A stretch of 64,000 bases of DNA, taken from IMG/VR virus record IMGVR_UViG_2645727901_000008; one strand, 5' to 3'. Origin of the DNA: a virus. Lineage: Duplodnaviria; Heunggongvirae; Uroviricota; Caudoviricetes. Below are positions 2,876 through 53,022 of the stretch, piece after piece. The first letter of the stretch is position 1, and each line of letters opens with the position of its first letter. The notes beneath the pieces are model-generated. The model was not told the origin of the DNA. It did no database searches and saw only the letters and a program-made list of their open reading frames with translations. Position numbers and translations under genes: made by a program.

Positions 2876-3852
2876 TTGTTCGGCACTCCTAATATCATTC
2901 GTGTTGTGTAGCCTACGCGGTCTTCAAAGTGCGCAACATTTTTTACTATCAGCTTGCGGGGCATTGATTCATCAATGCGGTTTTCCTGGTCATAGCGGTA
3001 TACGATAATCTCTATTACCATTCCCGGTTTTATATCCGGATTGCCTGCGACTTCTATATCCATTTTGGGGACGAGAGACAGCTGCATATTGCGAAGAGTT
3101 TCCATATCAGAATCGGATATATAACGCACTGGGAGTGAGCTATCGCCATATTCGACGTAGCCATCGGTCATGGAATACCCAACAAAACGATATTGATTCT
3201 TTGCTGTTGTCGCATGTTCCTGTTGGAGTAGGCGCATTTTGGACAAAGTGTATTCTGCTTTAGGGTTATTCCCCTCGTAGGTAAATGATGGCGTTTGCTT
3301 CATCAGATCAGCCAGGGTGTAAAAGTTAAATTCCCCACGGCATACCCAACATAATGCACCTTTGTCTCGCGCTATCTGCGAGAGCATTTTTGACGGTTTG
3401 TCACCGGCATTCAGATGATATGTAACTGCGCGTTTTAGCACGCTGCTGGTAATTTTAAGCTTGCCGGAATATGCCTTGAATATAGCGTCTGGTGTTTTGT
3501 TGGTATGTAAATTTGTGCGCGGGGAGGGGATCTTAAACCTGCGCACGTCTTCACTGACAGCAATAACGGTAACAACATCACCAGCCAGCATTGCAGACGT
3601 AACAAAGAAGTCTGTTTTAAAAGTGCCTGCATTACCGTTTGGATCGCCCATTTCAGCCACCAGCGATGCACCGTATTTGGCTTTCCAGTCATCAATTACG
3701 GTGCCGGTAGCGTCATGAATTTCCAGTTTTAGCAAAGGGGCTTTGAGGCTGGTTTTTTCTACATATACTGCGGTAAAAATCCAGTCTCGTGGCACTTTGT
3801 TATCGTTAATGAGCACTGACTGTAGAAAATATTGTTGTAACTCCTGGGCCAC
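2872..3852 (-). CDS. Hypothetical phage protein (326 aa), possibly structural
   Basis: Long ORF tightly packed with neighbours on the same strand; no motif recognised. Confidence 0.45.
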   Translation of the reverse strand: MAQELQQYFLQSVLINDNKVPRDWIFTAVYVEKTSLKAPLLKLEIHDATGTVIDDWKAKYGASLVAEMGDPNGNAGTFKTDFFVTSAMLAGDVVTVIAVSEDVRRFKIPSPRTNLHTNKTPDAIFKAYSGKLKITSSVLKRAVTYHLNAGDKPSKMLSQIARDKGALCWVCRGEFNFYTLADLMKQTPSFTYEGNNPKAEYTLSKMRLLQQEHATTAKNQYRFVGYSMTDGYVEYGDSSLPVRYISDSDMETLRNMQLSLVPKMDIEVAGNPDIKPGMVIEIIVYRYDQENRIDESMPRKLIVKNVAHFEDRVGYTTRMILGVPNK

Positions 3853-4623: not shown

Positions 4624-5453
4624 TCGATCACTCCGTTTTGAGTCGTATCAAAATTCCTGGCAGGTATGCAGTAGTAAAGCGAACCAACATGCTGTGTGCC
4701 GTAGCTAAAAATACGGTGCACGTACCACCAGCGGCGGGCTACGCCGTTTACCATCTCTTCATTCCATTCAAGAATTGATCCGACGGGGACGTTATTTGCT
4801 GCAATACGCAGAATCAGAACATCATCGGTTAAGCCATCCTGCTCACCGTCTGCGTCAATCGCATGGAAAGAGTCACGCCCGTCCGGGTTATCCAGCACAT
4901 AAACGATTTCAGGTTCCTGGTAAGTCAGTTCGCGCTGGTTGTTATCCAGTTCAGTGAATGACTCTTCTCCTGTTTCGTCGCTGACTACCCCATATGTGCC
5001 AACATCTGGTCGATATAAGAGAGCCTGAAACGCGTCTGGGCTGGATTCAATAATCAGCATCCAGTCTGCGCGGATTTGGTCGTTAAAGGCTTTATGCCCG
5101 TTATAGCGTGCTTTTAGCTGTGGAGTTGGTTCTCTGCCAGCCAGGGAAGGTGGAAGTATGGCTATATCTGATTCGGCAGCATCCGGAGTAAGGCCAGCGT
5201 TGCTATCAGCAAAATTATCATGGCTATCAGCTTTGGCGGCGGGTTGCTCTTCCAGAATGCTGAATGAATCCGAACCGGTATTGCCATGTTCCGGCGCGCC
5301 TCCTGCATTCGCTTCAATCGGCGCTGGCGTTTCTCTCTGCGTGCTGTCATGTTCTGACTCATTACTTGCCAGGTTTGCATCGTCAGCAAACCATTCGTCA
5401 AAACGGCCCATAAGCATCCTCAAAGGTCGATTTATCAGGTATCGAGGGTGCAT
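4620..5453 (-). CDS. Hypothetical phage protein (277 aa; start may be ATG at 5411)
   Basis: Long ORF; GAGG 6 nt upstream of the internal ATG at 5411. Confidence 0.45.
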   Translation of the reverse strand: MHPRYLINRPLRMLMGRFDEWFADDANLASNESEHDSTQRETPAPIEANAGGAPEHGNTGSDSFSILEEQPAAKADSHDNFADSNAGLTPDAAESDIAILPPSLAGREPTPQLKARYNGHKAFNDQIRADWMLIIESSPDAFQALLYRPDVGTYGVVSDETGEESFTELDNNQRELTYQEPEIVYVLDNPDGRDSFHAIDADGEQDGLTDDVLILRIAANNVPVGSILEWNEEMVNGVARRWWYVHRIFSYGTQHVGSLYYCIPARNFDTTQNGVIE

Positions 5454-5488
5454 TGTCTGGAGATTGTGATTTCAATTCATATCCCAAC

Positions 5489-5536
5489 ATGGGACTAAAG
5501 TGCTTTACATTGTCCCATATTGGGACTACTATACTT
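5489..5536 (+). promoter_or_regulatory. higBA promoter/operator region with nested inverted repeats (ATGGGAC...GTCCCAT, GTCCCA-TAT-TGGGAC) and a TATACT -10-like hexamer
   Basis: Inverted repeats read from sequence directly upstream of the higB RBS. Confidence 0.4.
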
Positions 5537-5556
5537 TCAGAGAGAAGGAATCTGTG

Positions 5557-5859
5557 ATGAAAATAATTTCGGTAAAAACACTAAGGGATTTCTGGGCGAA
5601 GAATCCCGATGCAGAACAGCCATTAAAGGCATGGGTTGATGAAGCAACAAAGGCTGACTGGAAAAATCCGGCTGAGATCAAAGAACAGTACCGGACAGCC
5701 AGCATCCTTAAAAACAGGCGCGTGGTGTTCAATATTAAGGGAAATGATTACAGGTTAATTGTCGCAATTGCTTATCAGCGAGGATGGATGTTCGTTAAGT
5801 TTATTGGAACACATAAGGAATACGATGCCATTGAAGCGGATACAATAGAACTGGAGTAA
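5557..5859 (+). CDS. higB: Type II toxin HigB (RelE-superfamily mRNA interferase)
   Basis: VFNIKGNDYRLIVAIAY...FIGTHKEYD aligns with E. coli HigB VFNVGGNELRVVAMVF...VMTHKEYD; ATG at 5557 with GAGAAGGA RBS. Confidence 0.8.
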   Translation: MKIISVKTLRDFWAKNPDAEQPLKAWVDEATKADWKNPAEIKEQYRTASILKNRRVVFNIKGNDYRLIVAIAYQRGWMFVKFIGTHKEYDAIEADTIELE

Positions 5860-5862
5860 ATC

Positions 5863-6222
5863 ATGAACATTAAACCTATCCGTACAGAACAAGATTATGA
5901 GGCCGCACTGCGTGCGGTCGAACCGATGTTCGATAACGAACCGGAAATGAACACACCGGAAGGCGATTTCTTTGAAGTAATGTGCCTGCTCATTGAAGAG
6001 TACGAGAAAAAGCATTACCCAATTGAGCCACCATCACCTATTGAAGCCATTAAATTCCGTATGGAACAGCAAGGGCTGACCGTGAAGGATCTGGAACCGG
6101 CGATTGGTAAGTCAAATCGAGTTTACGAAGTGCTTAATGGGACACGAAATTTGACGTTACCTATGATTCGTCGTTTACATGCCCAGTTTGGTATTCCACT
6201 GGAAAGTCTGGTTGGTGTTTAA
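5863..6222 (+). CDS. higA: Antitoxin HigA (XRE-type HTH)
   Basis: C-terminal HTH pattern GLTVKDLEPAIGKSNRVYEVLNGTRNLTL resembles HigA; starts 4 nt after higB stop. Confidence 0.8.
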   Translation: MNIKPIRTEQDYEAALRAVEPMFDNEPEMNTPEGDFFEVMCLLIEEYEKKHYPIEPPSPIEAIKFRMEQQGLTVKDLEPAIGKSNRVYEVLNGTRNLTLPMIRRLHAQFGIPLESLVGV

Positions 6223-6284
6223 GTTTGGCGGTCTGGAGGACCGCTTTTTATCTAAAATAAAAATTAGAAGGTTTGATAGCTTGT

Positions 6285-7022
6285 ATGGGCAAAAATTCAT
6301 CAACAGAAAACACATCTACAATTGACTCAATCAAGGGCACAATGGATGAAGCCATAAAAGATAAATTATTTAATAAATTATTTGCATATGTGGTGGTTTC
6401 ATTTTTTGTCGTTAATTGGCAAGAAATACTAATTTTGTTTAAATCTAAATATGATATATACACAACACTGTCTATAGTATGGGTAGGGGATAAATATCAA
6501 ATCCCTTATTTTGGAACCTTCATTGTATCTCCGTTTTTAGCTCACTTTGTGATGCCGTTTATATATGGCACTATTGCGTCCATAGTGATGCCTTATATTA
6601 CTATGCGTATATCAAAACTCACTGGTAGAAATTATGCGCAAATAAGATACATTGACCATGAATTTGACTCAGAAGAGAAAGCAAGAGTAAAGGCGTTGCT
6701 GAGAAACCTAAAGAAAAAAGAGGAAGAGCTTTTAAAATTAGAGGAACAAATAGAAGGTCAACAAAAAATACTGAATACAATCGAAGAAAAGAAGAGAGAG
6801 ATTGAGAGTGCCAGAGTGGCTCTGTATCACGGTATAAAAGTAATTGTTGATATATATAAAGCAAAAGATAAAAGGATTTCCACCAAAGAAGATTTTGCCG
6901 ATTTATTAAAAGCAATTGAAGAAAGTGATTTTTATAAAGACACTGGGTTGTGGGGTATTAATAAATTAATAGATGACGTGGAGACAATATATGAGTCTCA
7001 ATCGACATCAAAGGACAAGTAA
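6285..7022 (+). CDS. AT-rich accessory gene: membrane N-terminus plus coiled-coil C-terminus, unknown function
   Basis: Visibly AT-rich codons; hydrophobic segments then K/E-rich heptad-like region; sits between higBA and a convergent gene. Confidence 0.5.
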   Translation: MGKNSSTENTSTIDSIKGTMDEAIKDKLFNKLFAYVVVSFFVVNWQEILILFKSKYDIYTTLSIVWVGDKYQIPYFGTFIVSPFLAHFVMPFIYGTIASIVMPYITMRISKLTGRNYAQIRYIDHEFDSEEKARVKALLRNLKKKEEELLKLEEQIEGQQKILNTIEEKKREIESARVALYHGIKVIVDIYKAKDKRISTKEDFADLLKAIEESDFYKDTGLWGINKLIDDVETIYESQSTSKDK

Positions 7023-10949: not shown

Positions 10950-11567
10950 TCATTTTTGTCGGATCTTTTCCAGCATATTTAATTCATTATCACTTTCTGC
11001 TGCTGAGACGGTTGGCCTCACATTTCCGAAATATTTCCTGTGAGACTCATGACTTATGTATTCACCGACAGTTTCATTCTTGAATATACGAATTTGACAT
11101 ATGCGAGATCCAACAATAAGTTCTACAGGGCTATTCCCATGATTAAATAACTCTAAAGATATACAGCCTCTGTACCCTGGTTGTATCATGGTATTTAATG
11201 AAAGACCAAGCCTTGTATAGCTGCTTCTGGACAATACATCAGCGTAGCAATCTGGTGGCAAACAAACATATTCTAATGTTGTTGCCAGTACCACTTGATT
11301 CGGGTAAACAATGAATCTATCCCCAAGATCTCTCCTTGTTTCCTGGAAAAATGTTCTGATTGGTTGATGAGTATCATTGTTTTTTGATGGAATTAACTCT
11401 ATTGACGGCTTCCTTGTCATAATAGACACTAAAAAATCGTAACCAAGTCTAAGGTCTATGGTGAAGTTCCCAATTTGGTTTTTATTTAGAAGAGGTTCAA
11501 TGAACAACGACTCAGGTTCTTCTGATTCATAATATTGCAGCAATTCAGCTTTGCTTAGGAGATTCAT
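10950..11567 (-). CDS. dCTP deaminase-fold (Dcd/dUTPase-superfamily) protein
   Basis: IDLRLG, VYPNQVVLATTLEYVCLP, SSYTRLGLSLN and QPGYRGCISLELFNHGNSPVELIVGSRICQIRIF align motif-by-motif with E. coli Dcd as I recall it; ATG at 11567 overlaps upstream stop (ATGA). Confidence 0.65.
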   Translation of the reverse strand: MNLLSKAELLQYYESEEPESLFIEPLLNKNQIGNFTIDLRLGYDFLVSIMTRKPSIELIPSKNNDTHQPIRTFFQETRRDLGDRFIVYPNQVVLATTLEYVCLPPDCYADVLSRSSYTRLGLSLNTMIQPGYRGCISLELFNHGNSPVELIVGSRICQIRIFKNETVGEYISHESHRKYFGNVRPTVSAAESDNELNMLEKIRQK

Positions 11568-12637
11568 TGTGCACTCCATTTTTCAAGAATCATTACGTTT
11601 CGAATCGATTTTTCAACCAAATCATTTATAGTTTTTTCTATGGCTTCTTGTGACAACCCAGACCATATACCCGTAGGTTTTTCCCATTCAGAGCATAAGT
11701 ACTGCCAGCTGCTGTTAATAAAAGCATGCATTTCATTGTGGTCGCGAATAACAAAAGGACGCACATTATCAAAAGCTGATTTCACATCAAGCAAAGGTGT
11801 CGGCAATGTCAAACAAGGAGAAATAATCTGCCCACCATTATGTAAGGCTGATATCACAGCATTGAACATGCCAACAACTGGATTTTCCACTTTGTTCAAA
11901 AAGTCGCTTACAATTTTAACTCTATCTTCTGTGGATGGGTGAGTATAGCTTGCAGGATGAGAGCCAGCTAATTTGTATAAGAAATCTACCCCACTTTTTC
12001 CAATAAATTGGGCACTAAATAGATCTGCAAAATATTCTCTGCAATGATTTATCCAAATAACATCAGGTAGATTACTCCATTCTGGTCCAGGAAGTGTGCC
12101 TTTGTCCTTGGAACGATAGTTAAGACAGGCAAGCTCAGAAATACCTTTGCTAATATCAACGAAATGTCCCAATTCGTGATATAAAGGTATAGAGCATAAT
12201 GGTCGTCTTCTGTACATTTCAGGTAATGAAATCTGAATTAATTCGACATCGAATTTGACATTTAAAACTTCGTCAAATAAAGAATACAAATTCTTGTTTA
12301 CAGACTTAAAATAAAACCCATGCATATCTGGAGATAGGGCTGTGGTTATAAGTGTTTTTTCACTTATCCATTTTTTACAGGCATCATTTAAGCAATAGAC
12401 AATCTCGTAGGGAATTTTCTTTGTAGTACTGCCAGTGAAAAAATTAACTGCATCGGTGATAAAAAAAGTACAATCCGCAATTATTTTATCAGCAACATTC
12501 ACATGGTTTTCATAGAGCTTATCCACCGCTTCTTGTAGAACAGCAAGATATTCATGCATGTCTTTAGAAAAATAGGGAGATTCTGATATCTCCCTTAGCT
12601 TATTTCGAACTAATGTAAGTTGTGTAAATGCAAGCAT
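11564..12637 (-). CDS. HExxH zinc-metallopeptidase-like protein (357 aa)
   Basis: YHELGHFVD motif with downstream acidic/His residues; start ATG overlaps upstream stop by 1 nt. Confidence 0.5.
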   Translation of the reverse strand: MLAFTQLTLVRNKLREISESPYFSKDMHEYLAVLQEAVDKLYENHVNVADKIIADCTFFITDAVNFFTGSTTKKIPYEIVYCLNDACKKWISEKTLITTALSPDMHGFYFKSVNKNLYSLFDEVLNVKFDVELIQISLPEMYRRRPLCSIPLYHELGHFVDISKGISELACLNYRSKDKGTLPGPEWSNLPDVIWINHCREYFADLFSAQFIGKSGVDFLYKLAGSHPASYTHPSTEDRVKIVSDFLNKVENPVVGMFNAVISALHNGGQIISPCLTLPTPLLDVKSAFDNVRPFVIRDHNEMHAFINSSWQYLCSEWEKPTGIWSGLSQEAIEKTINDLVEKSIRNVMILEKWSAQ

Positions 12638-12942
12638 TAAATGTACTCTAATACATTCCGGGCCATTACGGGTTCTAACATATCTTCGCTAGTTACTTTG
12701 GTTAGCACCTGGGCGAGCGCCTTAGTGTGGCGTATCTCTACCGCGAGCGAGATGGACTCTCTGTGAGAAGGAATCTGTAATTGATCACCTTTATCTACAC
12801 TTAAGTTTGAGGCTTCTCTGATCACCTCATAAACCCGTAACTTTAACTGCTGTGACACTTCTTGTTGAGATGCTATAAGCTGAAGTACAGTCTTGATCAA
12901 CTTCAAAGAATCAGAAGCTTGCTGAGGAACCGCATAGAGCAT
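12637..12942 (-). CDS. Small helical protein (101 aa), first gene of the three-gene cassette
   Basis: ATG at 12942 with GGAGGGG RBS; coupled to the next gene. Confidence 0.5.
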   Translation of the reverse strand: MLYAVPQQASDSLKLIKTVLQLIASQQEVSQQLKLRVYEVIREASNLSVDKGDQLQIPSHRESISLAVEIRHTKALAQVLTKVTSEDMLEPVMARNVLEYI

Positions 12943-13077
12943 AACCCCTCCTTTCCCTTATCTATAACCGCTTTCTTTTTTCTGTGTATGTTAAAAGTAG
13001 AAGCGGTTTTTACCTTTTGTAATATATATAGTGTCTAAAACTAACTTTGGCACTATATATGGCATGATATCTATGTT

Positions 13078-13123
13078 TTAAAGACACAAAAGCTCTGTTA
13101 AAACAGAGCTTTTGTGTCTTTAA
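13078..13123. repeat. Perfect 17-bp-stem palindrome AAGACACAAAAGCTCTG-TTAAAA-CAGAGCTTTTGTGTCTT upstream of the three-gene cassette
   Basis: Read directly from sequence; no flanking U-tract on either strand. Confidence 0.6.
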
Positions 13124-13267
13124 CTTGATCATTTTCTCGCTGAAGTGTATGTCAGGCTTAGCTCATAATCAAGTTGCTTCCAAGCTAAAAATGAGCTAGC
13201 TCCCTGAAACACTAAGAGCGGGGTGTTTCATTTATTAGCGTTGGGCCTGACGGTGTGTAGGTGAATT

Positions 13268-13555
13268 TTAGCTCATTACTCGATAACGACGGGGAATGGA
13301 ATTCTCCATCAGGCCACGAATTACTCCCGCCTCACGTAGTTCCTCTGTCTCCCAGTATCTGTTTGTCACCAGATCGAGGCTGGCTATGACCTTGTGCCGG
13401 TCATTCGGCATAGCTAATTTTTCTGCTATAACCATCAGTGAAAACTCTTCATCCAGTAGAATTTGATAGCAGTTTTTTGATAGTTCCACTTCCCTTATGA
13501 GACTGAAACGTCGCTGGATTGTGGCAGTAGAGTAAGTGAAATCTATTTTCTTCAT
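13268..13555 (-). CDS. Hypothetical protein (95 aa)
   Basis: ORF in track; no motif recognised. Confidence 0.4.
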   Translation of the reverse strand: MKKIDFTYSTATIQRRFSLIREVELSKNCYQILLDEEFSLMVIAEKLAMPNDRHKVIASLDLVTNRYWETEELREAGVIRGLMENSIPRRYRVMS

Positions 13556-13574
13556 CGTGCGGAGAATCCGATTA

Positions 13575-13600
13575 TTTAGCAGTTAAAGCCCCGGACAGGC
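13575..13600 (-). terminator. GC-rich hairpin (GCCCCGG-ACAG-CCGGGGC) after antirepressor-like gene
   Basis: Hairpin read from sequence; near-identical hairpin follows the second copy at 51537-51555. Confidence 0.4.
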
Positions 13601-13614
13601 CGGGGCAACAGTAA

Positions 13615-14541
13615 TTAACTAACAATCCAGTCCATAGCAACCATATCCTCTGGCGCTAAATCAATAGCATGGATTTTCCCATCCCGGATAGTGCGCCAGT
13701 GCTTCCTTGATCCGCCTTCGGGCCATACCCATACACCTTCAGACCATGAGGCGCGACGGCATACCGTTGCATATCCACTTCTGATCTTCTCTCTGGCGGT
13801 ATGCAGTGACAGATTATCTTTTGGGATTTCCGGTAAAGGATGATGGATTGCCTGAAACAGCCCCATCTTGGGATGATACCAGCGTTTGTTGCGTGGTTCT
13901 GCCTCCGACATAACCTGCTTGAAGGCTTTCTGGAAGGGGGCCAGGGCCACAATGGAGCGTCGCGCAAGCAAACCATCTGGAGTTAAAAACTCATGCGTAT
14001 CGGTGGGAATCCGGAAAGCGTTAACCAGGTTGCGACATTTGGCTTCGGTCAGGCCACATTTCGCCGCCAGCTGGCGGTAGCCAATGTAGCCTTCCGGAAT
14101 ATTGCCTTTCTTTATTTGCTCGAGTGTTTCAGCGACCATCGATACTTGTGCTGATACCTCGGCTACCTGGGCATTTACGGCGTTGATCCGGCGTTCATGC
14201 TCAAGATGCATTTGCGCCATTTCAGCCAGGATTTCGGCTTTTGATTTTAACTGTACCCGGGCATTCTCCAGTTCGCGCCAGCGGTCCACCAGCCGGGCGG
14301 TGAATTCGGGAGAGAGCTGCGCGACGACGACAATACTATCGCGCTTGCCTTGCTCGCCTTCGAAGACGTAATAGCTCGCCGGGCGGCCTGCGGTGGGCTT
14401 TTCCTCAATTTGAGGAAAAGATATTACGCCCCGTTCCGCCAGGTGTTCAATGGTGCGTTTAACGTTATCAGGGCGCTTACCTACCAGTTCCGCGATCTCA
14501 ATGCTGGTCATTGTCGCTTTTTGAGAGATGGACAGATTCAT
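13615..14541 (-). CDS. Rha-family regulator / antirepressor-like protein with C-terminal DUF2829-like extension (fused form)
   Basis: N-terminus MTSIEIAELVGKRPDNVKRTIE is Rha-like; C-terminus homologous to the separate 66-aa ORF at 51564-51764; start overlaps upstream stop. Confidence 0.65.
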   Translation of the reverse strand: MNLSISQKATMTSIEIAELVGKRPDNVKRTIEHLAERGVISFPQIEEKPTAGRPASYYVFEGEQGKRDSIVVVAQLSPEFTARLVDRWRELENARVQLKSKAEILAEMAQMHLEHERRINAVNAQVAEVSAQVSMVAETLEQIKKGNIPEGYIGYRQLAAKCGLTEAKCRNLVNAFRIPTDTHEFLTPDGLLARRSIVALAPFQKAFKQVMSEAEPRNKRWYHPKMGLFQAIHHPLPEIPKDNLSLHTAREKIRSGYATVCRRASWSEGVWVWPEGGSRKHWRTIRDGKIHAIDLAPEDMVAMDWIVS

Positions 14542-14756
14542 CAGTGCGCCTCCACGCAGTTCATCGGCAGATTCCAGTAATTGAGGATCTCCATCGCATC
14601 AAGAGTGAAGCGAGCAGCAAAAATGCAGGGTTCTTCGGGAAGGTATGAGCGCGCCTCTGCTTCGGTAGCAGCCATGACGCAGATATACAGGTGTTTTTGG
14701 CAGGAATAGAAACGCCAGATAAATTCAGAATGAGTTGGGGTAGGGATAGTAGCCAT
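14541..14756 (-). CDS. Icd-like small protein (assigned by position upstream of the antirepressor-like gene)
   Basis: 71 aa; AAGGAGG RBS; paralog of ORF at 52468-52692; same order as P1 icd-ant. Confidence 0.4.
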   Translation of the reverse strand: MATIPTPTHSEFIWRFYSCQKHLYICVMAATEAEARSYLPEEPCIFAARFTLDAMEILNYWNLPMNCVEAH

Positions 14757-15067
14757 ATTGGCAGCCTCCTTTGACTAAGTTAAGGAGCTACCGCGTGAGG
14801 TTCCAATCTCAATGGCGGTAGCACTGACTGGGTTGGAACTACCGGCGTCAAAGGGAACCGGCCTGCCTTTCGGCAGCCCAGCCAGCACTACCATTGATCT
14901 CTGAGCTAAACGCTACGTATGGCTGTGCGATGGCATGACACAAAAAAAGACGCTTTCGGCGTCTGTGTCGCCTTTGACATTATCCGGGGTTCCAATCCCG
15001 GCACCCGTTTTTCTAAGGTGCCGTAGAAATATACCCCACGATAATGCCAGGGCGCAACAGTCAGTAT

Positions 15068-15238
15068 TTTATGCTTTGGCGGATTTCTTCCGGGCTTGCT
15101 TGCAGGCGTAGGCCATTGCTTTAGCTTTCACTTCATCCAGCTTCCCGGTGATCGCTTCTTTTCCGAGAGTGACAAACCAGTCATAGCAACCGCCAGTGAT
15201 GTTCTGGATTTGAAAGTTGAGGTAGCGAACGGTCATTT
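15068..15238 (-). CDS. Possible small protein (about 56 aa)
   Basis: Minus-strand ORF with GGGGTG RBS; below ORF-track cut-off. Confidence 0.2.
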
Positions 15239-15567
15239 TGACACCCCCAGCGCGAGTAAAGAATGCAGATTATCGCGTGAGTGGCGGACAACGAGTGATG
15301 GGAAAAGACAGTAGCTGTTCATAGTGTAGTGACTCCTTGCTTTCGGAGCCGCCATCGACTGTTCCACGGTCTGGTGGCGGCGCAATAAAGGCTGGAACAC
15401 CGTGAGTCAACGGGGGCTTTTCAGCCACCTATATTGCACCGCCATAGGTATAGCGGCGGCAATAATACGAAAAACTAAACAGTTTGTCTCAAAAAGTTGA
15501 CCGGTGTGCCAATCGGTAGTGAATGTACATCGGAGAAATTTACAATTCAACTTAAAATGTTAGAAAA

Positions 15568-16146
15568 CTAATTTATCAATTCAATCGCCATCTGATACAA
15601 CGTCATTTCATCGGCATTGTGCCGCATGAAATCTGCTTTTCCGCCTATTTTTCCGTCAGCATGAACAGGGACCAGCCAGGGATATTGTTCTCGGACCTCG
15701 GCTGGCGCTGCGTACTGGTGGTGCCATTTACACAAAGGGAGGACATATTTATGCGCGTTCTCTGCCGTTCTCCCGAAGATATGGTGCAGGGATACTACTG
15801 GGCTATGTTGTCCGTGAATATGGCAGGCAATGCAGGGGAGAGTACCGATAGCGGTCTGTATCCGGCGTTCATCAGCTGTGAGTGATCTGCCCTTCAGGCC
15901 GCGTGACGTGCGTGTTTTTTTGGGCGGAGCGGATACAGCTTTATCTTTTCTCCGCTGTTCATATTGCTTTGCTTTTTCAATTTTCTTTTGCCGATATTCA
16001 GGCGATGCGGCTTTTTCTCTCGCTCGCTGCTGCTGGCGTTGAGCTTGTTGAAGGCGCTTTGCCCTTTGTTCCTCTCGCCAGGCCGGGTCAGCCAATTTTT
16101 GCATGGCTTTTTGTCTCTGTTTCTCCCAATAGCTCTGTTTCTGCAT
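15568..16146 (-). CDS. ref: Ref-like HNH endonuclease (recombination enhancement function)
   Basis: Basic N-terminal region plus CIACHIHG...SLHHI...CKWHHQYAAPAEVREQYPWLVPVHADG as in P1 Ref. Confidence 0.8.
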   Translation of the reverse strand: MQKQSYWEKQRQKAMQKLADPAWREEQRAKRLQQAQRQQQRAREKAASPEYRQKKIEKAKQYEQRRKDKAVSAPPKKTRTSRGLKGRSLTADERRIQTAIGTLPCIACHIHGQHSPVVSLHHIFGRTAENAHKYVLPLCKWHHQYAAPAEVREQYPWLVPVHADGKIGGKADFMRHNADEMTLYQMAIELIN

Positions 16147-16194
16147 GATGGCAGTCTCTTACTTTTCAATGATTTTTCTATGATTGATCAAAAC

Positions 16195-16224
16195 TGTTAG
16201 ATATTCAAAATTGATTTTCTAACA
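16195..16224. promoter_or_regulatory. Palindromic site TGTTAGA-N16-TCTAACA in the divergent region upstream of ref
   Basis: Read from sequence; about 50 bp upstream of the ref ATG. Confidence 0.5.
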
Positions 16225-20611: not shown

Positions 20612-20911
20612 ATGAGTCAAGGTAACGGTGGTGGAGCTGCAAAGTGCAGAATCTCCACTTGTTTGATTAATGGCAGAAAAATAGAACCGTGCGCGGCGCT
20701 GGCACAATCTCTGGAGCAGGATGCTGAATACACGACGCGAAAAGGCCTGCTGAAATACAAAGTCTATAACCATGAATTAATTCATTCACAGGACCTGATC
20801 ATGCTGCGGTCTGGTGAATTTTCTAAATCGCCTATTCGAGTTTCATTTTGCCCATTCTGTGGTGAAAGTCTGAAAACGTGGGAAGCGGAGGCAACCAGTG
20901 AGCAAAATTAA
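20612..20911 (+). CDS. Small Cys-containing protein (paralog of 22405-22667)
   Basis: Shares C-terminal FCPFCGESLKTW...EATSE with the paralog. Confidence 0.45.
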   Translation: MSQGNGGGAAKCRISTCLINGRKIEPCAALAQSLEQDAEYTTRKGLLKYKVYNHELIHSQDLIMLRSGEFSKSPIRVSFCPFCGESLKTWEAEATSEQN

Positions 20912-21356
20912 CTATCAAGAACTGCGCGAGGCGGCGGAACAGGCAACGCAAGATGAATGGGTAGCATATATTTTGCCGGGTCATAACGGCATTTATCCTG
21001 CGCGCACGTCTGAAGGTAGGCATTGCGGATACTTTATTGACTGGCCTGGCATTGATGGACAAAGGAATGCTGGTGCTAATGCCCGTTATATCGCGGCTAT
21101 CCCACCAAAAGTTGCACTGTCACTCCTAGGCGAAATTAAGCGCCTGGAGGACAAAAATATTGATGCCATGTGCCAAATTGCAGAGCTGGAGAGCAATCGC
21201 GCGGCGCTGGCGGCGGAGCATGGTATTCAGATTGCAATAAATGAACTGCTTGCTCTGGCCCCGCGTCTGGATAAACGAGCGATGGATGCACTCTCTGTGG
21301 CTGTGGAGCACCTGTGTAAACTGATTAAGAAGGAGGCAGTCAGTGAGCAAAATTAA
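20898..21356 (+). CDS. Ead/Ea22-like protein
   Basis: N-terminal MSKINYQELREAAE signature shared by three paralogs. Confidence 0.55.
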   Translation: MSKINYQELREAAEQATQDEWVAYILPGHNGIYPARTSEGRHCGYFIDWPGIDGQRNAGANARYIAAIPPKVALSLLGEIKRLEDKNIDAMCQIAELESNRAALAAEHGIQIAINELLALAPRLDKRAMDALSVAVEHLCKLIKKEAVSEQN

Positions 21357-22023
21357 TTACCAGGCACTGCGTGAGGCGGCAGAAAAAGCACTACATGGTG
21401 AATGGGGTTACGAGGCAGGGGCAATCTGGAATACCTGTGATAGCGGCTATGTTCAGCACATGGCAGCGGTCGAGACTGGCGATGATGTTAGCGATGAAGA
21501 GCATATGAGCAATATGCGTTTTATCACGCTCGCCACGCCAACTGTTGTTCTTGGATTGCTTGATGAGCTTTCTGAAGCTAAAGCTGCCGAAGAGAATGAG
21601 TCCAGTTGTGCTAACAGCGTTATCGACATCGCTATCAACTGGCAGATGCGAGCCAAAGATGCAGAAGCCAAGCTGGAAGCCGCAGAGAAGCGCATTGCGG
21701 AACTGGAAACAAAAGCGAACCAGCAAACCAGAATAAGCGATAAGAATCTGACCAGGCTGATTGCCGATGCTGACAAAATGCTGGGTATGCGTTCGCCGGT
21801 TATAGACAGCGAGTGGTGGACGCTTTTACGGCAGTTCCTGATTGAACTTCAGGATCGCCGCAGAAACAGCATTTCTGAATCTGGAATCCGTGCTGAAACC
21901 CTGAATGATTTAATCCGACATATTGACAGAAACCTGGATATTGACGCGATGAAATCGCCGTTTGAACTGTCATCTGAAATTGTGGATTACGTTAATAGGC
22001 AACTGCACAAGGAGAATTCGTAA
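21343..22023 (+). CDS. Ead/Ea22-like protein (226 aa)
   Basis: MSKINYQALREAAEKA N-terminus; coiled-coil middle. Confidence 0.55.
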   Translation: MSKINYQALREAAEKALHGEWGYEAGAIWNTCDSGYVQHMAAVETGDDVSDEEHMSNMRFITLATPTVVLGLLDELSEAKAAEENESSCANSVIDIAINWQMRAKDAEAKLEAAEKRIAELETKANQQTRISDKNLTRLIADADKMLGMRSPVIDSEWWTLLRQFLIELQDRRRNSISESGIRAETLNDLIRHIDRNLDIDAMKSPFELSSEIVDYVNRQLHKENS

Positions 22024-22242
22024 TGCAGGTGGCATTTGTTGGCCTGTTACCGCATCCGATCCGCCTTTGGGCGGATATGTCACTCATAAAAACGCATTTT
22101 TTTACTACTGATGGCGGCATTCCGGCACCAAAGCGCCGTCATACCGGTATTGCAGCGGCACGACGAGCAGCAAAGAGACGCAGGAGAGCAAAGCGATGAA
22201 AAACCGTAAAGCAAATAAAGTGGCAAAACAGGAGGCGGCGCA

Positions 22243-22404
22243 GTGAACCAGCAAACCAGAATAAGCGATAAGAGCCTGACCAGACTGATTGCCGATGCGG
22301 ACAAGGTGCTGGAGCGGAACACACCCGTTGCCGATGAGGAATGGTGGCAGGATTTCCGGGCTGCAATGCTGGAACTTCAGGAACGTCGTCGGGAGGAGTT
22401 GAAG
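22243..22404 (+). pseudogene. Remnant of an Ead/Ea22-like C-terminal segment (about 150-bp imperfect direct repeat of 21717-21870)
   Basis: DNA and translation (NQQTRISDKSLTRLIADADK...) repeat the C-terminal part of ORF 21343-22023. Confidence 0.4.
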
Positions 22405-22667
22405 TGAGTGAATTAAAGTGTCGAATTAATGGCAATCAGATAGAACCGTGTGCGGTACTGGCAAAAGCACTCGAATATGGAAATCCAGCCTTTAAGAGTA
22501 AAGGCATATTTATCCCGGAACGCGTGAATATAAATACCGGCGAGCCAGGCTTAGACATTGCTCAAATTCACTCCGGCCAATATGTCGGTCGTGGTGTTGC
22601 CATGTGTTTTTGCCCGTTCTGTGGTGAAAGTCTGAAAACATGGAAAAAGGAGGCAACCAGTGAGTGA
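22405..22667 (+). CDS. Small Cys-containing protein (paralog of 20612-20911), probable GTG start
   Basis: Paralogous C-terminus; the longer ORF-track start overlaps the remnant. Confidence 0.45.
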
Positions 22668-23214
22668 AGTTAACTATCAGGCACTGCGTGAGGTGGCAGA
22701 GGCCGCGAAGGGGGATACGACGTGGCAGAACCTACAGGCTTTTCATGCTGCGGCAACGCTGGAGGTTGTGCAGGCGTTGCTGGATGAAAACGAAAGACTG
22801 TGTCGCGATCTGATAGCTCGTAATGGTGAGATTGAAGGGCTTCGGGAGTGGGCAGAAGAACTGGAGGCACGGGAAGTGGCTTTGCCAGTAGCGTCATGCA
22901 TTGTTGAAGATGGATGCATGTGTGTTGATGGGTTCAGTGAGTATGTAGGTCACTCGCTACCTGATGGAATGCATGAGCTTTATGCTGCCCCACCAGCGTC
23001 GGTAGTGCCGGAAGGACTAGTTAAAGCAGTGCGTTTCTATGAACAGGTAAAGTGTGAGAATCCGCCAGTCGAAACCGGAGCATGGAAAGACGCTATTGAC
23101 TGGGTGCTCAAAGAGGCTTGCCAGGCTGTAAACATTGGCATCAAAGGAGAGAGATATGGCAACTTTAACAAAAAAAGAACAAGCATGGTTGAACGAATTA
23201 CAGGACGTTCTTGA
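22660..23214 (+). CDS. Ead/Ea22-like protein (184 aa)
   Basis: MSEVNYQALREVAEAA N-terminus. Confidence 0.55.
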   Translation: MSEVNYQALREVAEAAKGDTTWQNLQAFHAAATLEVVQALLDENERLCRDLIARNGEIEGLREWAEELEAREVALPVASCIVEDGCMCVDGFSEYVGHSLPDGMHELYAAPPASVVPEGLVKAVRFYEQVKCENPPVETGAWKDAIDWVLKEACQAVNIGIKGERYGNFNKKRTSMVERITGRS

Positions 23215-31906: not shown

Positions 31907-32944
31907 ATGAGTAAGAAGTCGATCGAGAAAGAGTACAAACGGTTCCTGCAAACCGCTGAACGGTGGAAAGAGCTGGTGGTCGCAAACTCTGTTTTCCATG
32001 ATACCAGTTATGCCGGCGAGGAATTCCGCCACGTTGCACTAACACATGATCAGAATGTACTAGAAGAAGCTGAAAAGTGCCTCACAGAATGGAAAGCCTT
32101 TGTTGACTTGTGCCGTAACGCTGACGGCAAAGCGTCCAACATTGTTGAGTCTGTATATTCTCCGATCCCATTCATTATTGAGGACACAAATCAAAGCACG
32201 CATATTGTTGTGCAAAGCGCGACCACCACCCGCTCATTTACGCGCGAAAATCTGCTCAAAAAATATGATGCAATTATAAAGAAAAGCCTGAAAAACAAGA
32301 TATTTTCGCAGATTGTTGGTGCACTTGAAGAAGAGCGCCGTTTTTTCGCATCAGAACCTGAAGGGGAAGTTTACCGGGCGCGCAAAGATGGATACACAGA
32401 TGTAGTGCTTACAACAAACATTGAAGGCAGCAATGCTCTGTCACGATTCAGGGTAGGCGCACACGGAGCCTTAGTGTTCGCAAAACTTCCGAACACCACA
32501 GTGCCCGTTGTTAATAATGTCGGCGAACGTCGCAGCATTACTATTTATTCTGGGGTTGAGTCGATACCTTGCGGCCTGCTTGGTGACTTTAGCCTCTATC
32601 GCGTTCGCGATCTGGAGAAACACCAACCAAGCTATGTTGCGAAGTCATATATCTTGCGAAACATCGACATCCGCAATGAGAGCTTAAAGAACAAATCAGC
32701 CAAAATGCTTGAGGAAGCCGATCCGGCTATTCGCCATATCATTGAGCGTAAAATACAGACAGCACGCGAAGCGATGGCGAGACTGAATAAAATGGATCTG
32801 GAGTTGTTAGACGTAATGATGACATCCGGAGATGACCTGACAGGCATAAAACTGACAGACGCGCGGAAAAGATACGGTAAAACCATAGAAGAACGTTACG
32901 GGTTCACTTTCTCCCAAACACAGCACGCCGCTAAACTCTGGTAA
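31907..32944 (+). CDS. Hypothetical protein (345 aa) at the position P1 uses for its c1 repressor
   Basis: Convergent with pacB and adjacent to the recombination site; TGTTAGAAAA motif 22 bp upstream; no similarity to P1 C1 that I can recognise. Confidence 0.5.
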   Translation: MSKKSIEKEYKRFLQTAERWKELVVANSVFHDTSYAGEEFRHVALTHDQNVLEEAEKCLTEWKAFVDLCRNADGKASNIVESVYSPIPFIIEDTNQSTHIVVQSATTTRSFTRENLLKKYDAIIKKSLKNKIFSQIVGALEEERRFFASEPEGEVYRARKDGYTDVVLTTNIEGSNALSRFRVGAHGALVFAKLPNTTVPVVNNVGERRSITIYSGVESIPCGLLGDFSLYRVRDLEKHQPSYVAKSYILRNIDIRNESLKNKSAKMLEEADPAIRHIIERKIQTAREAMARLNKMDLELLDVMMTSGDDLTGIKLTDARKRYGKTIEERYGFTFSQTQHAAKLW

Positions 32945-37761: not shown

Positions 37762-37837
37762 TGGTGGCCCCTACCGGACTTGAACCGGTGACCGTGCGAT
37801 TATGAGTCGCCAGCTCTAACCACTGAGCTAAAGGGCC
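37762..37837 (-). tRNA. tRNA-Ile2 (anticodon CAU, ileX-like; would be read as Met without lysidine context)
   Basis: Reverse complement GGCCCTTTAGCTCAGTGGTTAGAGC...GACTCATAATCGC...GGTTCAAGTCC...GGGGCCACCA nearly matches E. coli ileX. Confidence 0.85.
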
Positions 37838-37848
37838 AATTAGTGTTT

Positions 37849-37962
37849 TATTTTCGACGCCTGAGATTCTTCGCGACTTGTTCTACGCCGTATACGATCA
37901 CAAGTAGAAACAGCAAAAACCATCCAGGGTTCTTATCGATATACGTCCAAAAATCCATCATG
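37849..37962 (-). CDS. Possible small membrane peptide (about 37 aa)
   Basis: Translation MMDFWTYIDKNPGWFLLFLLVIVYGVEQVAKNLRRRK. Confidence 0.25.
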
Positions 37963-38120
37963 AGTTCCTGAACGCACCTTCAATAATCGGCAATAGCAAT
38001 ACCACAGCTACTGAAACTAATGCCCCATCAGCCAACACCGACATCACTTTGCTGGTGAAATCCACCAGTACGGACAAAACGAGAAAGCCAATGGCGCCCG
38101 CAATACGCGCCTTGCCAATC
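37959..38120 (-). CDS. Possible small membrane protein (about 53 aa)
   Basis: Translation MIGKARIAGAIGFLVLSVLVDFTSKVMSVLADGALVSVAVVLLLPIIEGAFRNS. Confidence 0.25.
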
Positions 38121-38121
38121 A

Positions 38122-38577
38122 TTACAGATAATCTTCCACACGAAGGCCAAGACGGCGACCAACCTCTTCCAGAACCTTATGCTCCGCAGGTTCGATTTCA
38201 CCATCTGCTTCAGCGATCGTGAGCATGTTCACGAAGACTTCTTCCGCTTCTTTGGGATCGTTTTTGATATCTTCAATTTCGCGGAGGATATTCATGCGAC
38301 CAACACGGAAACCAGCTTCCAGTTGCTCAGTAAAACGGGTGATTGTTGCGGTAATTTCGTTGCCAAAATGACTTAAGCGAGGATTAGAGCGGACAAGCTG
38401 ATCAAGTTTCGCTGTTTCTTCCTTTTCGATTTCACCATCTGCGGCAGACACCAGCAAACAGCCACCGATGATGGCCTCCATCAGATCGCGATTCTCAACC
38501 CTTTTCAGCTCTACTTTTGCTGAAGCGACTTTCTTACCGAAAAATTTACCGAACATTGGTTTTCCCTCAATAAACAT
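38122..38577 (-). CDS. TerB-like (tellurite-resistance family) protein; start may be ATG at 38556
   Basis: Repeated helical ...ADGEIE... segments typical of TerB-like proteins; GAGGGAAAA RBS before the internal ATG. Confidence 0.5.
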   Translation of the reverse strand: MFIEGKPMFGKFFGKKVASAKVELKRVENRDLMEAIIGGCLLVSAADGEIEKEETAKLDQLVRSNPRLSHFGNEITATITRFTEQLEAGFRVGRMNILREIEDIKNDPKEAEEVFVNMLTIAEADGEIEPAEHKVLEEVGRRLGLRVEDYL

Positions 38578-38823
38578 GACGTATTTATTAGGTTGCGGTG
38601 CCTGGTGCCTCCAGGTGACGTTAACCAGTTAACAATTAACGCCGGGATTTTTGTCTTCACAATTAAGGAGGATTGTTTTAACTGTTCCGCGTGCGCTTAG
38701 CCGCATTCACCGCAATGGTAAGAGCACTTGGCTGGCTGGGCGGCGATGACGCCTGTACGCATTTGGTGAACCGGTTCTGCTTCCGGCATTCGCTTAATTA
38801 GCCAAATACTCTTAACGTTGCAC

Positions 38824-38910
38824 TGGCGGAGAGTAATGGAATCGAACCATCATCGCTTGCGCAATGGGACGGTTTTCAAGACCGCTTGAGCACCATGCTC
38901 CCTACTCTCC
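38824..38910 (-). tRNA. tRNA-Ser-like (anticodon UGA, long variable arm), atypical D-arm
   Basis: 7-bp acceptor GGAGAGT/ACTCTCC, anticodon loop CTTGAAA, T-loop TTCGATT, encoded CCA; folded by eye. Confidence 0.5.
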
Positions 38911-39045
38911 CGTTATTGTGGCGACCGGTGCTGATCTCCGGCTTGCGGTTATTTCAGACTCTCACGGGCGTTTAATTGCCCCGCCGAACAGCTCTTTTCC
39001 GCAATAGCTGCAATGTCTTTCGCGCATCAGCCTGCGCATTCACCA

Positions 39046-39135
39046 CAATGTTGAGAACACTGGTTGTCACGCTGCAACGCAACATTTATTCGTAGATTGG
39101 GATATGACCCCGTTACGCCAGTGTTCTCAACGTTG
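39046..39135. repeat. 18-bp inverted repeat CAATGTTGAGAACACTGG ... CCAGTGTTCTCAACGTTG flanking about 54 bp
   Basis: Read from sequence; one mismatch between arms. Confidence 0.55.
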
Positions 39136-39283
39136 TAGTGCCGGTTACGGTTCCGGCCAGGCCTCTTCCTCAACGGGTTGTTCTCCATACGGACTACCGT
39201 TTATTGGTCGTTCCTGCGGTTTATGTTGTGAAGCCAGATGCTTATCTTCTGGTTGCTTCAAAGAGCTGCACTTCATCACAACG

Positions 39284-39356
39284 GTAAGGGTACTTCGTAG
39301 GGATTCGAACCCTCTGCCAAGCACGGCGATCTCCGACGTCGCAAAATACCCTTACC
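39284..39356 (-). other. tRNA-like element with T-arm (GGGTTCGAATCCC) and 10-bp closing stem but no canonical anticodon arm; possible tRNA pseudogene
   Basis: Folded by eye; T-loop present, cloverleaf incomplete. Confidence 0.25.
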
Positions 39357-39364
39357 TGTTGCGT

Positions 39365-39440
39365 TGGTGCCGATTAACGGGATCGAACCGCTGACCATTC
39401 GCTTACAAAGCGACTGCTCTACCAACTGAGCTAAACCGGC
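39365..39440 (-). tRNA. tRNA-Thr (anticodon UGU)
   Basis: Reverse complement GCCGGTTTAGCTCAGTTGGTAGAGC...CTTTGTAAG...GGTTCGATCC...CGGCACCA. Confidence 0.85.
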
Positions 39441-51531: not shown

Positions 51532-51555
51532 AAAAAGCCCCGGCCAGGCCGGGGC
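51531..51555 (-). terminator. Rho-independent terminator (GCCCCGG-CCAG-CCGGGGC plus T6 on minus strand)
   Basis: Hairpin and A6/T6 tract read from sequence. Confidence 0.55.
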
Positions 51556-51563: not shown

Positions 51564-51764
51564 TCAATTCACGATCCAATCATTACCGACTATATCAGCC
51601 GTCGATAAATCAACTTCCCGGATCTGGAGTCCATTAATACAAAACCATCCGGTAGTAGAGTAATTATCAGGCCAGGCCCATACACCAACACTCCATGCTT
51701 TACGGCGGCACACTTCAGCCTGTCCTTCCCTGATTTTTTTTACCGCCTGCATGATGTCCATCAC
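51564..51764 (-). CDS. DUF2829-like small protein (66 aa), separate-ORF counterpart of the C-terminus of ORF 13615-14541
   Basis: AVKKIREGQAEVCRRKAW...ADIVGNDWIV; GTGATG start overlaps upstream stop. Confidence 0.45.
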   Translation of the reverse strand: MMDIMQAVKKIREGQAEVCRRKAWSVGVWAWPDNYSTTGWFCINGLQIREVDLSTADIVGNDWIVN

Positions 51765-52468
51765 TCACCTCCCCAACCGATCACCTGGAATTGCCCCATT
51801 TTGGGGTGATACCAGCGTTTTCCTCGGTGTTCAGCCTCCGACATCATCCGGTTAAAAGCATTCATGAAGGGAGATAAGGCCACGATGGAACGACGCGACA
51901 ATACCCCCTCTGGAGTTAAAAACTCATGTGTATCGGTGGGGATCCGGTAAGCGTTAACCAGGTTGCGACATTTGGCTTCGGTCAGGCCGCATTTTGCCGC
52001 CAGCTGGCGGTAGCCAATGTAACCTTCCGGCATGTTGCCCTTCTTGATTTGCTCGACGGTTTCTACCACCTGGCTAACCTTTGACTCAACAACATGAAGC
52101 CGCTTTTGCTGCTGAACTGCATTTGCAGCCATTGCGGCGATCATCTCTATTTCGGTCAACGGCTGGCGTGCTTGTTCTTCCAGTTCGCGCCAGCGGTCCA
52201 CCAGCCGGGCGGTGAATTCGGGAGAGAGCTGCGCGACGACGATAATGCTATCGCGCTTGCCTTGCTCGCCTTCGAAGACGTAAGCCTCAACACTACGTCG
52301 TAGTCCTAAGTTATTGATTTTTTCGAAAACCTCAATTTGAGGACGAACAATAACGCCACCTTTGTCTAATGTCTCAATAGTGCGTTTCACATTGTCATGA
52401 CGTTTTCCCACCAGCTCCGCGATCTCAATGCTGGTCATTGATGGCTTTTCGAGAATGCAGATATCCAT
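51761..52468 (-). CDS. Rha-family regulator / antirepressor-like protein (split form)
   Basis: MTSIEIAELVGKRHDNVKRTIE N-terminus; two DNA stretches nearly identical to copy 1. Confidence 0.65.
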   Translation of the reverse strand: MDICILEKPSMTSIEIAELVGKRHDNVKRTIETLDKGGVIVRPQIEVFEKINNLGLRRSVEAYVFEGEQGKRDSIIVVAQLSPEFTARLVDRWRELEEQARQPLTEIEMIAAMAANAVQQQKRLHVVESKVSQVVETVEQIKKGNMPEGYIGYRQLAAKCGLTEAKCRNLVNAYRIPTDTHEFLTPEGVLSRRSIVALSPFMNAFNRMMSEAEHRGKRWYHPKMGQFQVIGWGGE

Positions 52469-52692
52469 CAGTGAGCCTCCGCAATGCCGGGATTGGTAAT
52501 ATTGCGATACCAGGGATTGGTGTTTGGTTGTGGGGAAGTGGAGAAACGACCAGTGAGAACGCCATACTGATCAGGGATCAGAGAACGGGCTTCTTTTTCA
52601 GTTGCGGCAATTGCGAAGTGATCGCAGTGTTTTTGCAGGGAGTGAAAACGCCAGATGAATTCTGGACGTGAGCAAGGATTGGCATTAACCAT
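52468..52692 (-). CDS. Icd-like small protein (paralog of 14541-14756)
   Basis: Shares PEFIWRF...AIAATE...AH with the paralog. Confidence 0.4.
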   Translation of the reverse strand: MVNANPCSRPEFIWRFHSLQKHCDHFAIAATEKEARSLIPDQYGVLTGRFSTSPQPNTNPWYRNITNPGIAEAH

Positions 52693-53022
52693 AGTTACGG
52701 CCTCACTAACAGGTTTAACAACCTGCTACCCGCTGCTAAACAGGTGGCAGGACGTGACGGGGTTAGCAGACTGGCGTTAGTGAAACCAGCAGGCCGAAGC
52801 CTCCCCATCACGCCCCACCATAATTTGGGCGTAACGCGGTTTTACGGACACAAAAATACCGCAATATCGGATATCTGCGGTTGTCCGCACTAACATTCAG
52901 GCTGCTAAACCCGGTCGCAGAATTTGCTACGACGACATGAATATAAGCCTGAAAACATGGAAGATCAACTAAAAATTTCAGCAATAGATGACTTCAGTCG
53001 ATGATGCAGATCATACATTCCG

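Follow-up and report, generated by a model that had tools for sequence, protein, structure and literature searches.

The 64,000-nucleotide stretch analysed here, from the caudovirus record IMGVR_UViG_2645727901_000008 of IMG/VR and hereafter called the window, very probably contains a pair of complete and functional immI-type switches that are orthogonal to each other, each governed by an antisense RNA of its own. Both modules lie on the minus strand and follow one layout: an a1/b1 leader, a C4 RNA, the a2/b2 sites, an icd-like gene and a Rha-type "Ant" gene. Direct support comes from RNA family matches, complementarity and covariation, and from the fact that the two gene forms found downstream are each conserved. 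Around each module the sequence is ~96% identical to that of Escherichia phage D6 (MF356679), and the source is best described as a D6-like, P1-related plasmid prophage. In the D6 record the first copy comprises orf83, "inhibition of cell division" (icd-like), and orf82, a fused 313-residue "putative anti-repressor", while the second comprises the icd-like orf19, a 235-residue anti-repressor (orf18) and a separate 65-residue open reading frame (ORF; orf17). PLSDB furthermore holds 91 plasmid records that cover the module-1 query at 80% or more and 110 that cover the module-2 query, from E. coli, Salmonella and Shigella. Because D6 and the plasmid records carry both modules, the duplication is, on this evidence, real and stable. 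An assembly artefact, considered in a preliminary description of the window, is ruled out by the retention of both modules in D6 and in ~100 plasmid records.

The double immI arrangement is already known, and the window adds another example, distinguished by the combination of specificities that it carries. An ImmI-related region comprising c4, icd and an antirepressor has been described in the D6-like plasmid pYU39_89, together with a second antisense-RNA/icd-homologous region (PMC6799933), and additional icd-ant homologues have been noted in P1-like plasmids (PMC6906374). The details that are new are a combinatorial specificity code, a leader architecture common to IsrK and c4-a1b1, and a Tad2-fold domain at the antirepressor slot.

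The control region of module 1 is composed of the following elements:

15028..15057, minus strand: candidate promoter TTGCGC, 18-nucleotide spacer, TATATT, as read from the sequence, just upstream of the leader RNA
14943..15021, minus strand: IsrK-type leader (Rfam isrK RF01394, 62.7 bits; gathering score 50)
14995..14989, minus strand: a1, in the loop of hairpin 2, complementary to a' of the C4 RNA
14978..14971, minus strand: b1, single-stranded, complementary to b' of the C4 RNA
14964..14948 plus a U run, minus strand: intrinsic terminator following a1/b1, from an independent terminator scan
14811..14898, minus strand: C4 antisense RNA, full-length (Rfam C4 RF01695, 77.1 bits; gathering score 45)
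14854..14847, minus strand: b' CCUUUGAC, pairing with b1 and b2
14839..14833, minus strand: a' GUUCCAA, pairing with a1 and a2
14806..14800, minus strand: a2, a target site (target region 14765..14806)
14775..14768, minus strand: b2, overlapping the AAGGAGG Shine-Dalgarno sequence of the icd-like gene, 8 nucleotides before the ATG

The equivalent elements of module 2 are these:

52940..52968, minus strand: promoter-like site TTGATC, 17-nucleotide spacer, TATATT, aligning with the annotated P1 promoter P1c4/P51b
52852..52946, minus strand: a1/b1 leader (Rfam c4-a1b1 RF03163 at 52946..52894, 51.5 bits; gathering score 46.7)
52908..52902, minus strand: a1, complementary to a'
52894..52888, minus strand: b1, complementary to b', followed by a hairpin and U run
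52740..52825, minus strand: C4 antisense RNA, full-length (Rfam C4, 70 bits; gathering score 45)
52783..52776, minus strand: b' UCACUAAC, pairing with b1 and b2
52769..52763, minus strand: a' CUGCUAA, pairing with a1 and a2
52739..52733, minus strand: a2, a target site (target region 52703..52739)
52710..52703, minus strand: b2, overlapping the icd GUGAGG Shine-Dalgarno sequence

Thus a structured RNA of the C4 family is present in both leader regions, congruent with the expectation of the preliminary description that each would encode its own C4-type RNA. That description had also called the leaders dissimilar and hairpin-rich. Their sequences indeed differ and hairpins are present, but the resemblance goes further, with hairpin 1, hairpin 2 carrying a1 in its loop, an unpaired b1 and finally a terminator-like hairpin and its U run occurring in both. 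Because they share this one architecture, we regard the leaders as homologous despite the difference in sequence. At relaxed thresholds c4-a1b1 also matches the module-1 leader over the same stretch (22 bits), and isrK the module-2 leader (46 bits, below its gathering score of 50); the two Rfam families are best understood as overlapping parts of one leader element. In leader and RNA type, module 1 belongs with IsrK and P4 CI and module 2 with P1 and P7. The C4/a2b2 region of module 1 is 72% identical to the CI RNA region of phage P4, and the C4 region of module 2 is ~91% identical to the c4 region of P1/P7. Upstream, the -35 island of the module-1 promoter is common to the second module of the P1-like element RCS47, the surroundings being otherwise dissimilar, and this candidate promoter received no flag in a consensus scan.

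In PGAP-annotated plasmids a 39-residue "ash family protein" coding sequence (CDS) is placed exactly over the module-1 C4 (window 14775-14894, minus strand; 3076-3195 in locus L005). No NCBIfam hidden Markov model matches this 39-residue ORF. Its label is accounted for by the similarity to the P4 CI RNA region, which old records name "put. ash gene" or "cI gene product", and an RNA gene has probably been mis-annotated here as a CDS through a legacy label. The D6 stretches that were retrieved contain CDS features only, with no RNA annotated over either C4 region.

Each C4 finds perfect complements of 7-8 nucleotides twice in its own leader region, in the order a1, b1, C4, a2, b2. The recognition elements are UUGGAAC (a) and GUCAAAGG (b) in module 1, and UUAGCAG (a) and GUUAGUG (b) in module 2, and the two sets are unrelated. 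No complement of 7 or more nucleotides was found between the C4 loop of one module and the targets of the other. As the elements are unrelated, each C4 should silence its own operon alone. A search for short complementarity to the starts of the icd-like messages, suggested in the preliminary description, located b2 over the icd Shine-Dalgarno sequence in both modules.

We then turned to related loci. Alignment with P1, P7, D6 and the second module of RCS47 revealed a concentration of differences in the recognition elements, whose three copies all change in concert. Scanning IMG/VR with the invariant C4 cores recovered 71 loci with the module-1 scaffold and at least 120 with the module-2 (P1) scaffold. 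The former employs two a and two b variants, in all four combinations (25, 21, 18 and 8 of 73). In the latter, a is of either P1 or P7 type and combines with at least six variants of b, with concordance in each of the 93 cases parsed. Module 2 of the window is itself a hybrid, joining a P7-type a to a P1-type b, a combination also present in 8 other loci. For module 1 (31 distinct sequences), 99.8% of the a1-a'/b1-b' cells and 100% of the a'-a2/b'-b2 cells are paired, and 4 pairs are changed on both sides (48 cells). For module 2 (60 distinct sequences) the corresponding values are 99.9% and 98.6%, with 10 and 8 compensatory pairs. Not one of 500 shuffled controls reached the observed number of paired cells, both-side changes or covariation score, and controls in which the sites were slid attained at most 57% pairing. 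The module-1 leader is 95% conserved among its 31 distinct sequences, with variation confined to the six recognition sites, which co-vary, a pattern that indicates selection on function. The a/b types at the two modules moreover assort independently in 17 genomes; together with the free re-assortment of a and b, this argues against simple inheritance as the source of the pattern.

The following mode of action is proposed. In each module a promoter would drive a leader that displays a1/b1 and ends in the terminator-like hairpin. Transcripts stopping there would be short a1/b1 RNAs that, by analogy with Gifsy-1, could titrate C4 as decoys, while read-through would produce the C4 RNA and the icd-ant message. 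Processing of C4 by RNase P and repression in trans are expected from work on P1/P7 and Gifsy-1. The mature C4 would then pair via a'/b' with a2/b2 and, since b2 overlaps the icd Shine-Dalgarno sequence, block translation of icd and of the coupled downstream gene or genes. The Rha-type proteins would act as antirepressors, again following the P1/P7 and Gifsy-1 precedents. As the two C4s appear orthogonal, a resident prophage would silence the Ant of an incoming relative only where the two agree in a/b type at the module concerned. All four recognition elements of D6 differ from those of the window, and the two are therefore predicted to be heteroimmune at both modules. In D6 there are likewise two icd/"putative anti-repressor" pairs, one fused (orf82) and one split (orf18 and orf17).

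The precedents are well described. In P1, c4 RNA acts in trans to keep Ant synthesis repressed (PMC8546580), and the heteroimmunity of P1 and P7 is due to small nucleotide differences in immI (PMC6906374). In Gifsy-1, IsrK activates translation of the antirepressor AnrP in trans, and a stable processed RNA, STnc1160, which is complementary to IsrK, lies downstream of it (PMC4825925). Module 2 is ~91% identical to P1/P7 immI across a1b1-c4-a2b2 and the start of icd. The order of a1, b1, C4, a2 and b2 is common to P1 and both window modules, matching the annotated P1 sites, and in both modules, as in P1, b2 covers the ribosome-binding site of icd, which is itself coupled to the gene that follows. 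Unlike P1/P7, the window has a Rha-type protein without an ANT/KilAC domain in the antirepressor slot, repL upstream rather than downstream, two modules per genome and a mixture of P7-type a with P1-type b in module 2; a P1-type C1 operator was not found in the window. Module 1 resembles isrK-orf45-anrP of Gifsy-1 in its isrK match, in the same kind of terminator and in the structured RNA and antirepressor-slot gene that follow, but differs in having an icd-like gene between the RNA and that gene.

The immunity system of P4, composed of seqA, CI RNA and seqC, provides another way to read module 1, where the RNA is similarly flanked by two complementary site pairs. The module-1 RNA could act as CI does, through premature transcription termination at seqA/seqC-like sites, rather than by repressing icd. 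The 72% identity to the CI region is congruent with this, as are the terminator placed directly after a1/b1 and the IsrK-type leader, IsrK being a structural homologue of P4 SeqA according to its authors (PMC4825925). However, CI terminates transcription of replication genes, whereas the downstream site in the window covers the icd/ant ribosome-binding site, and the position of b2 on the icd Shine-Dalgarno sequence, 8 nucleotides before the ATG, predicts a translational block directly. The two modes are not exclusive, and according to the P1 record icd is apparently required for ant expression. Termination in place of icd repression is a possibility to be taken seriously, albeit a doubtful one.

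The translational block proposed above would act on the following genes:

14541..14756, minus strand: module 1 icd-like gene, 71 residues (NCBIfam phage_ICD_like, 49.5 bits, cut-off 25; phrog_1426, 5.5e-41)
13615..14541, minus strand: module 1 Rha-type protein in the Ant slot, 308 residues (Pfam Phage_pRha, 29.6 bits), with a fused Tad2-fold C-terminus at about residues 246-307
52468..52692, minus strand: module 2 icd-like gene, 74 residues (NCBIfam phage_ICD_like, 40 bits, cut-off 25; phrog_1426)
51761..52468, minus strand: module 2 Rha-type protein in the Ant slot, 235 residues, without the Tad2-fold domain (Pfam Phage_pRha, 36.8 bits)
51564..51764, minus strand: module 2 separate Tad2-fold protein, 65/66 residues, preceded by GGAGGTGA, its start overlapping the ant stop as TGATG
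51537..51555, minus strand: module 2 intrinsic terminator after the operon, 8 G-C pairs followed by TTTTTT

All elements of the two modules outlined in the preliminary description are present at the positions it gave and their ORFs confirmed, and the icd-like label holds for both copies by NCBIfam. Both icd-like genes overlap the next gene by one nucleotide, in the sequence TGATG that joins the stop to the ant start. The Rha label is upheld by Pfam and by source annotation: against the Phage_pRha (PF09669) cut-off of 29.9, the 235-residue protein scores above and the 308-residue protein just below, PF09669 is precomputed for nearly all homologues, and the sources use the name "Rha family transcriptional regulator". 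The two proteins are 67% identical over 237 residues.

Whether they act as antirepressors has to be weighed against the reading that they are DNA-binding transcription regulators without such activity, the Tad2-fold piece being an unrelated passenger. The source name and the Pfam Phage_pRha and winged-helix matches are in line with the latter. An AlphaFold2 model of the 308-residue protein, of moderate confidence (pLDDT 65, pTM 0.31) and kept out of the fold searches, suggests a winged helix connected through a long helix to a second domain of winged-helix-like form, with a disordered linker leading on to the C-terminal domain, and so also conforms to a DNA-binding protein with two winged-helix-like domains joined by a long helix. 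Furthermore, Pfam detects no ANT/KilAC domain in the Rha-type proteins of the window, whereas P1 Ant1 scores 106 bits against Pfam ANT, and the ANT/KilAC domain is found also in P1 KilA and the RCS47-type Ant. However, in the IMG/VR relatives the slot after icd is occupied interchangeably, on both scaffolds, by P1 Ant1/2, by a KilAC/ORF6N-type Ant or by a Rha-type protein, so that the Rha-type proteins sit in the exact position of proven or KilAC-type antirepressors behind identical leaders. The 308-residue protein also matches phrog_63, labelled "anti-repressor Ant" (1.9e-62), and the Tad2-fold piece stays linked to the Rha-type gene in conserved fused and coupled forms alike. We infer, mainly from the positional equivalence, that the Rha-type proteins are antirepressors, and consider the purely regulatory alternative rather unlikely.

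The N-terminal winged-helix region of the Ant proteins (ant codons ~15-60; window 14400-14500 and 52330-52425) is hypervariable even between orthologues. Between module 1 of the window and of D6, 17-28 of 45 positions are identical per N-terminal block, compared with 42-45 elsewhere. This hypervariable region may set target specificity.

The fused and split architectures of the two copies (308 residues versus coupled ORFs of 235 and 66), as first described, were confirmed at the level of the ORFs. In IMG/VR the fused form of the Rha-type gene (308 or 313 residues) is the usual one after a module-1 leader, with 17 loci. After a module-2 leader, 17 loci have the split form, of 235 (or 230) plus 66 residues, and one, L079, the fused form. 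The split junction, GGAGGTGAGTGATGGAC, is invariant in the 17 loci and provides a Shine-Dalgarno sequence and a stop/start overlap, while fused homologues of 301-314 residues make up more than 100 protein clusters. As the junction is conserved and fused clusters are this numerous, both forms appear to be maintained genes. That the split copy is an inactivating frameshift of the fused form, another concern of the preliminary description, is ruled out by the GGAGGTGA Shine-Dalgarno sequence, the TGATG overlap and the 17 conserved loci, which establish a conserved two-gene arrangement.

The short protein of module 2 and the fused C-terminus of module 1 belong together, with phrog_7385 matching the 66-residue ORF at 7.3e-49 and residues 247-307 of the 308-residue protein at 5e-16. 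The family is narrow: an exhaustive profile search with the 66-residue protein returned 8 matches among 1.84 billion representatives, and a word-indexed search 3. Direct Pfam matches to Tad2-like/DUF2829 (PF11195) stay below the cut-off of 25, at 14.9 bits for the 66-residue ORF and 9.4 bits for the C-terminus of the 308-residue protein. Two intermediate homologues among the profile matches, P0008 and P0005, score 37.4 and 23.9 bits. The AlphaFold2 model of the 65-residue protein reached a pLDDT of 91.5, and when it was compared with the PDB the 15 best matches were all Tad2 (TM scores 0.73-0.77, probability 0.99-1.00), the next match having a probability of 0.23. The assignment to the Tad2 fold, an N-terminal helix with an antiparallel sheet, is solid. 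The DUF2829-like label given initially is supported by the fold and the intermediate homologues, but not by a direct Pfam match above the cut-off.

At the ligand site the resemblance to Tad2 would be partial. Tad2 itself is an anti-defence sponge against Thoeris, a tetramer that sequesters gcADPR. In SPO1 Tad2 the main ligand contacts are W25, N26, W73 and D79 (bioRxiv 10.1101/2023.05.01.538930). According to a profile alignment, in which equivalences were derived through a homologous chain, the family shows no variation at the positions of W25 and D79, while that of N26 is S/P and that of W73 is V/I. SPO1 Tad2 is also longer (~89 residues versus 65 here), and the alpha2 loop used in Tad2 dimerisation is missing. 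The setting is likewise distinct, as the Tad2-like domain is here fused or translationally coupled to a Rha-type regulator in a C4-controlled operon; no link of Tad2/DUF2829 to antirepressors was found in the literature searched. That the domain binds a nucleotide immune signal, for example a TIR/Thoeris product, and serves as an anti-defence sponge or sensor is a tentative idea that we deem unlikely. Were it correct, C4-controlled operons would deliver an anti-defence sponge when the switch is thrown or, in a more unusual reading, the domain would be a sensor through which host immune signalling bears on the activity of the antirepressor and thereby on induction of the prophage. In either form, a Tad2-fold domain at the antirepressor slot offers a testable lead that joins lysis-lysogeny control and anti-defence.

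Next, the near-identical stretches shared by the two copies were assessed. Comparison of the window with itself bore out the direct repeats ~38 kb apart noted in the preliminary description. Repeat finding identified 14267-14371 versus 52179-52283 (105 nucleotides, 98% identical), 13846-14137 versus 51779-52070 (292 nucleotides, 82% identical, with a core at 14132-13983 of 92-96%) and 14447-14553 versus 52374-52480 (78% identical), all in direct orientation and ~37.9 kb apart. In a sliding comparison two patches of 92-98% identity sit within the ant genes; outside the shared patches the modules are 40-65% identical, the icd genes 55-65%, while the leaders can hardly be aligned at all. In D6 the two copies resemble each other just as closely over these patches, for which reason the patches are considered long-standing and not the product of a recent event in this genome.

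Such repeats might matter mainly as recombination substrates that delete the intervening 38 kb, and the 105 nucleotides at 98% and ~150 nucleotides at 92-96% in direct orientation would be suitable for it. Indeed, the junction predicted for a repeat-mediated deletion is present in one IMG/VR contig, L079 (IMGVR_UViG_3300013958_000038, 4700-6300), where a hybrid ant has the upstream context of module 2 (prt, pro, repL, C4, icd) on one side and the downstream context of module 1 on the other, with several switch points, all within the shared patches. However, L079 is a lone 10.7-kb metagenome contig, either a rare recombinant or an assembly chimera formed at the repeat, and the junction occurs in none of the 594 matching PLSDB plasmid records. 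The equal similarity of the patches in D6 moreover speaks for an old feature that has not destabilised the genome. We therefore judge a role primarily in deletion improbable, and retain two orthogonal switches as the preferred interpretation of the window.

Several findings nonetheless weigh against this interpretation, in addition to the missing ANT/KilAC domain. The covariation counts include related sequences, and relatedness inflates such counts. At one locus, L048 (A5 columns 39-40), a1 is non-cognate while a' and a2 agree, for which reason a1 pairing may tolerate mismatch and may not be essential. The only C1-repressor homologue of the window (31925-32617, plus strand) is 19.5% identical to P1 C1, the P1 operator consensus has no match in the window at up to 3 mismatches, and a candidate 17-mer by the module-2 promoter (52985..52969) occurs once in the window. 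Finally, truncation affects 6 of the 23 Rha-type Ant genes that follow a module-1 leader in IMG/VR contigs (45, 164, 212 in three cases, and 299 residues), and module 1 may for this reason be dispensable.

The truncated loci include L011, L025, L049 and L075, where loss of function or sequencing error are both possible. As to operators, the P1-like RCS47 (and JL22) has a second, unannotated cassette of module-1 type between c1 and pacB (L004 1316-3010), with an IsrK-like leader, C4, an icd-like gene and a KilAC/ORF6N Ant, and a P1-like C1 operator, ATTTGCTCTAATAAATT, upstream.

That module 1 is a decaying or redundant duplicate, with immunity resting on the repL-linked, P1-type module 2, is highly improbable: premature stops in those 6 of 23 Ant genes, a module-1 candidate promoter that is weak by consensus and D6-like plasmids of which some offer the module-2 query one matching place only would fit, but all module-1 parts are intact in the window, its conserved leader varies only at the co-varying recognition sites, more than 100 protein clusters represent an intact fused Ant gene, and in P1-like phages, RCS47 among them, the same leader/C4 cassette drives Ants of the KilAC type.

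Both E. coli and Salmonella commonly harbour plasmid prophages of the P1-like and D6-like kinds, and two orthogonal RNA switches would multiply the immunity types possible, given interchangeable elements of 7-8 nucleotides in 2 x 2 variants on one scaffold and 2 x at least 6 on the other. Such combinatorial switches may explain superinfection or coexistence of closely related elements.

Some further features of the window lie outside the modules. Just downstream of module 1, at 11564-12942 (minus strand), are a 357-residue ORF with an HExxH motif and a 101-residue ORF, neither of which has a match in Pfam or PADLOC. The D6 match of a 13000-16200 query starts only at ~13332, and 11564-12942 may represent variable cargo. 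PADLOC similarly returned nothing for the Ant proteins or the 66-residue ORF. A cluster of four tRNA genes is located at 37765-39613 (minus strand). At 20846-22723, three direct-repeat copies of 75-93 nucleotides (69-90% identical) extend across gene starts (GGAGG...GTGAGCAAAATTAAC), which suggests a small paralogous gene family.

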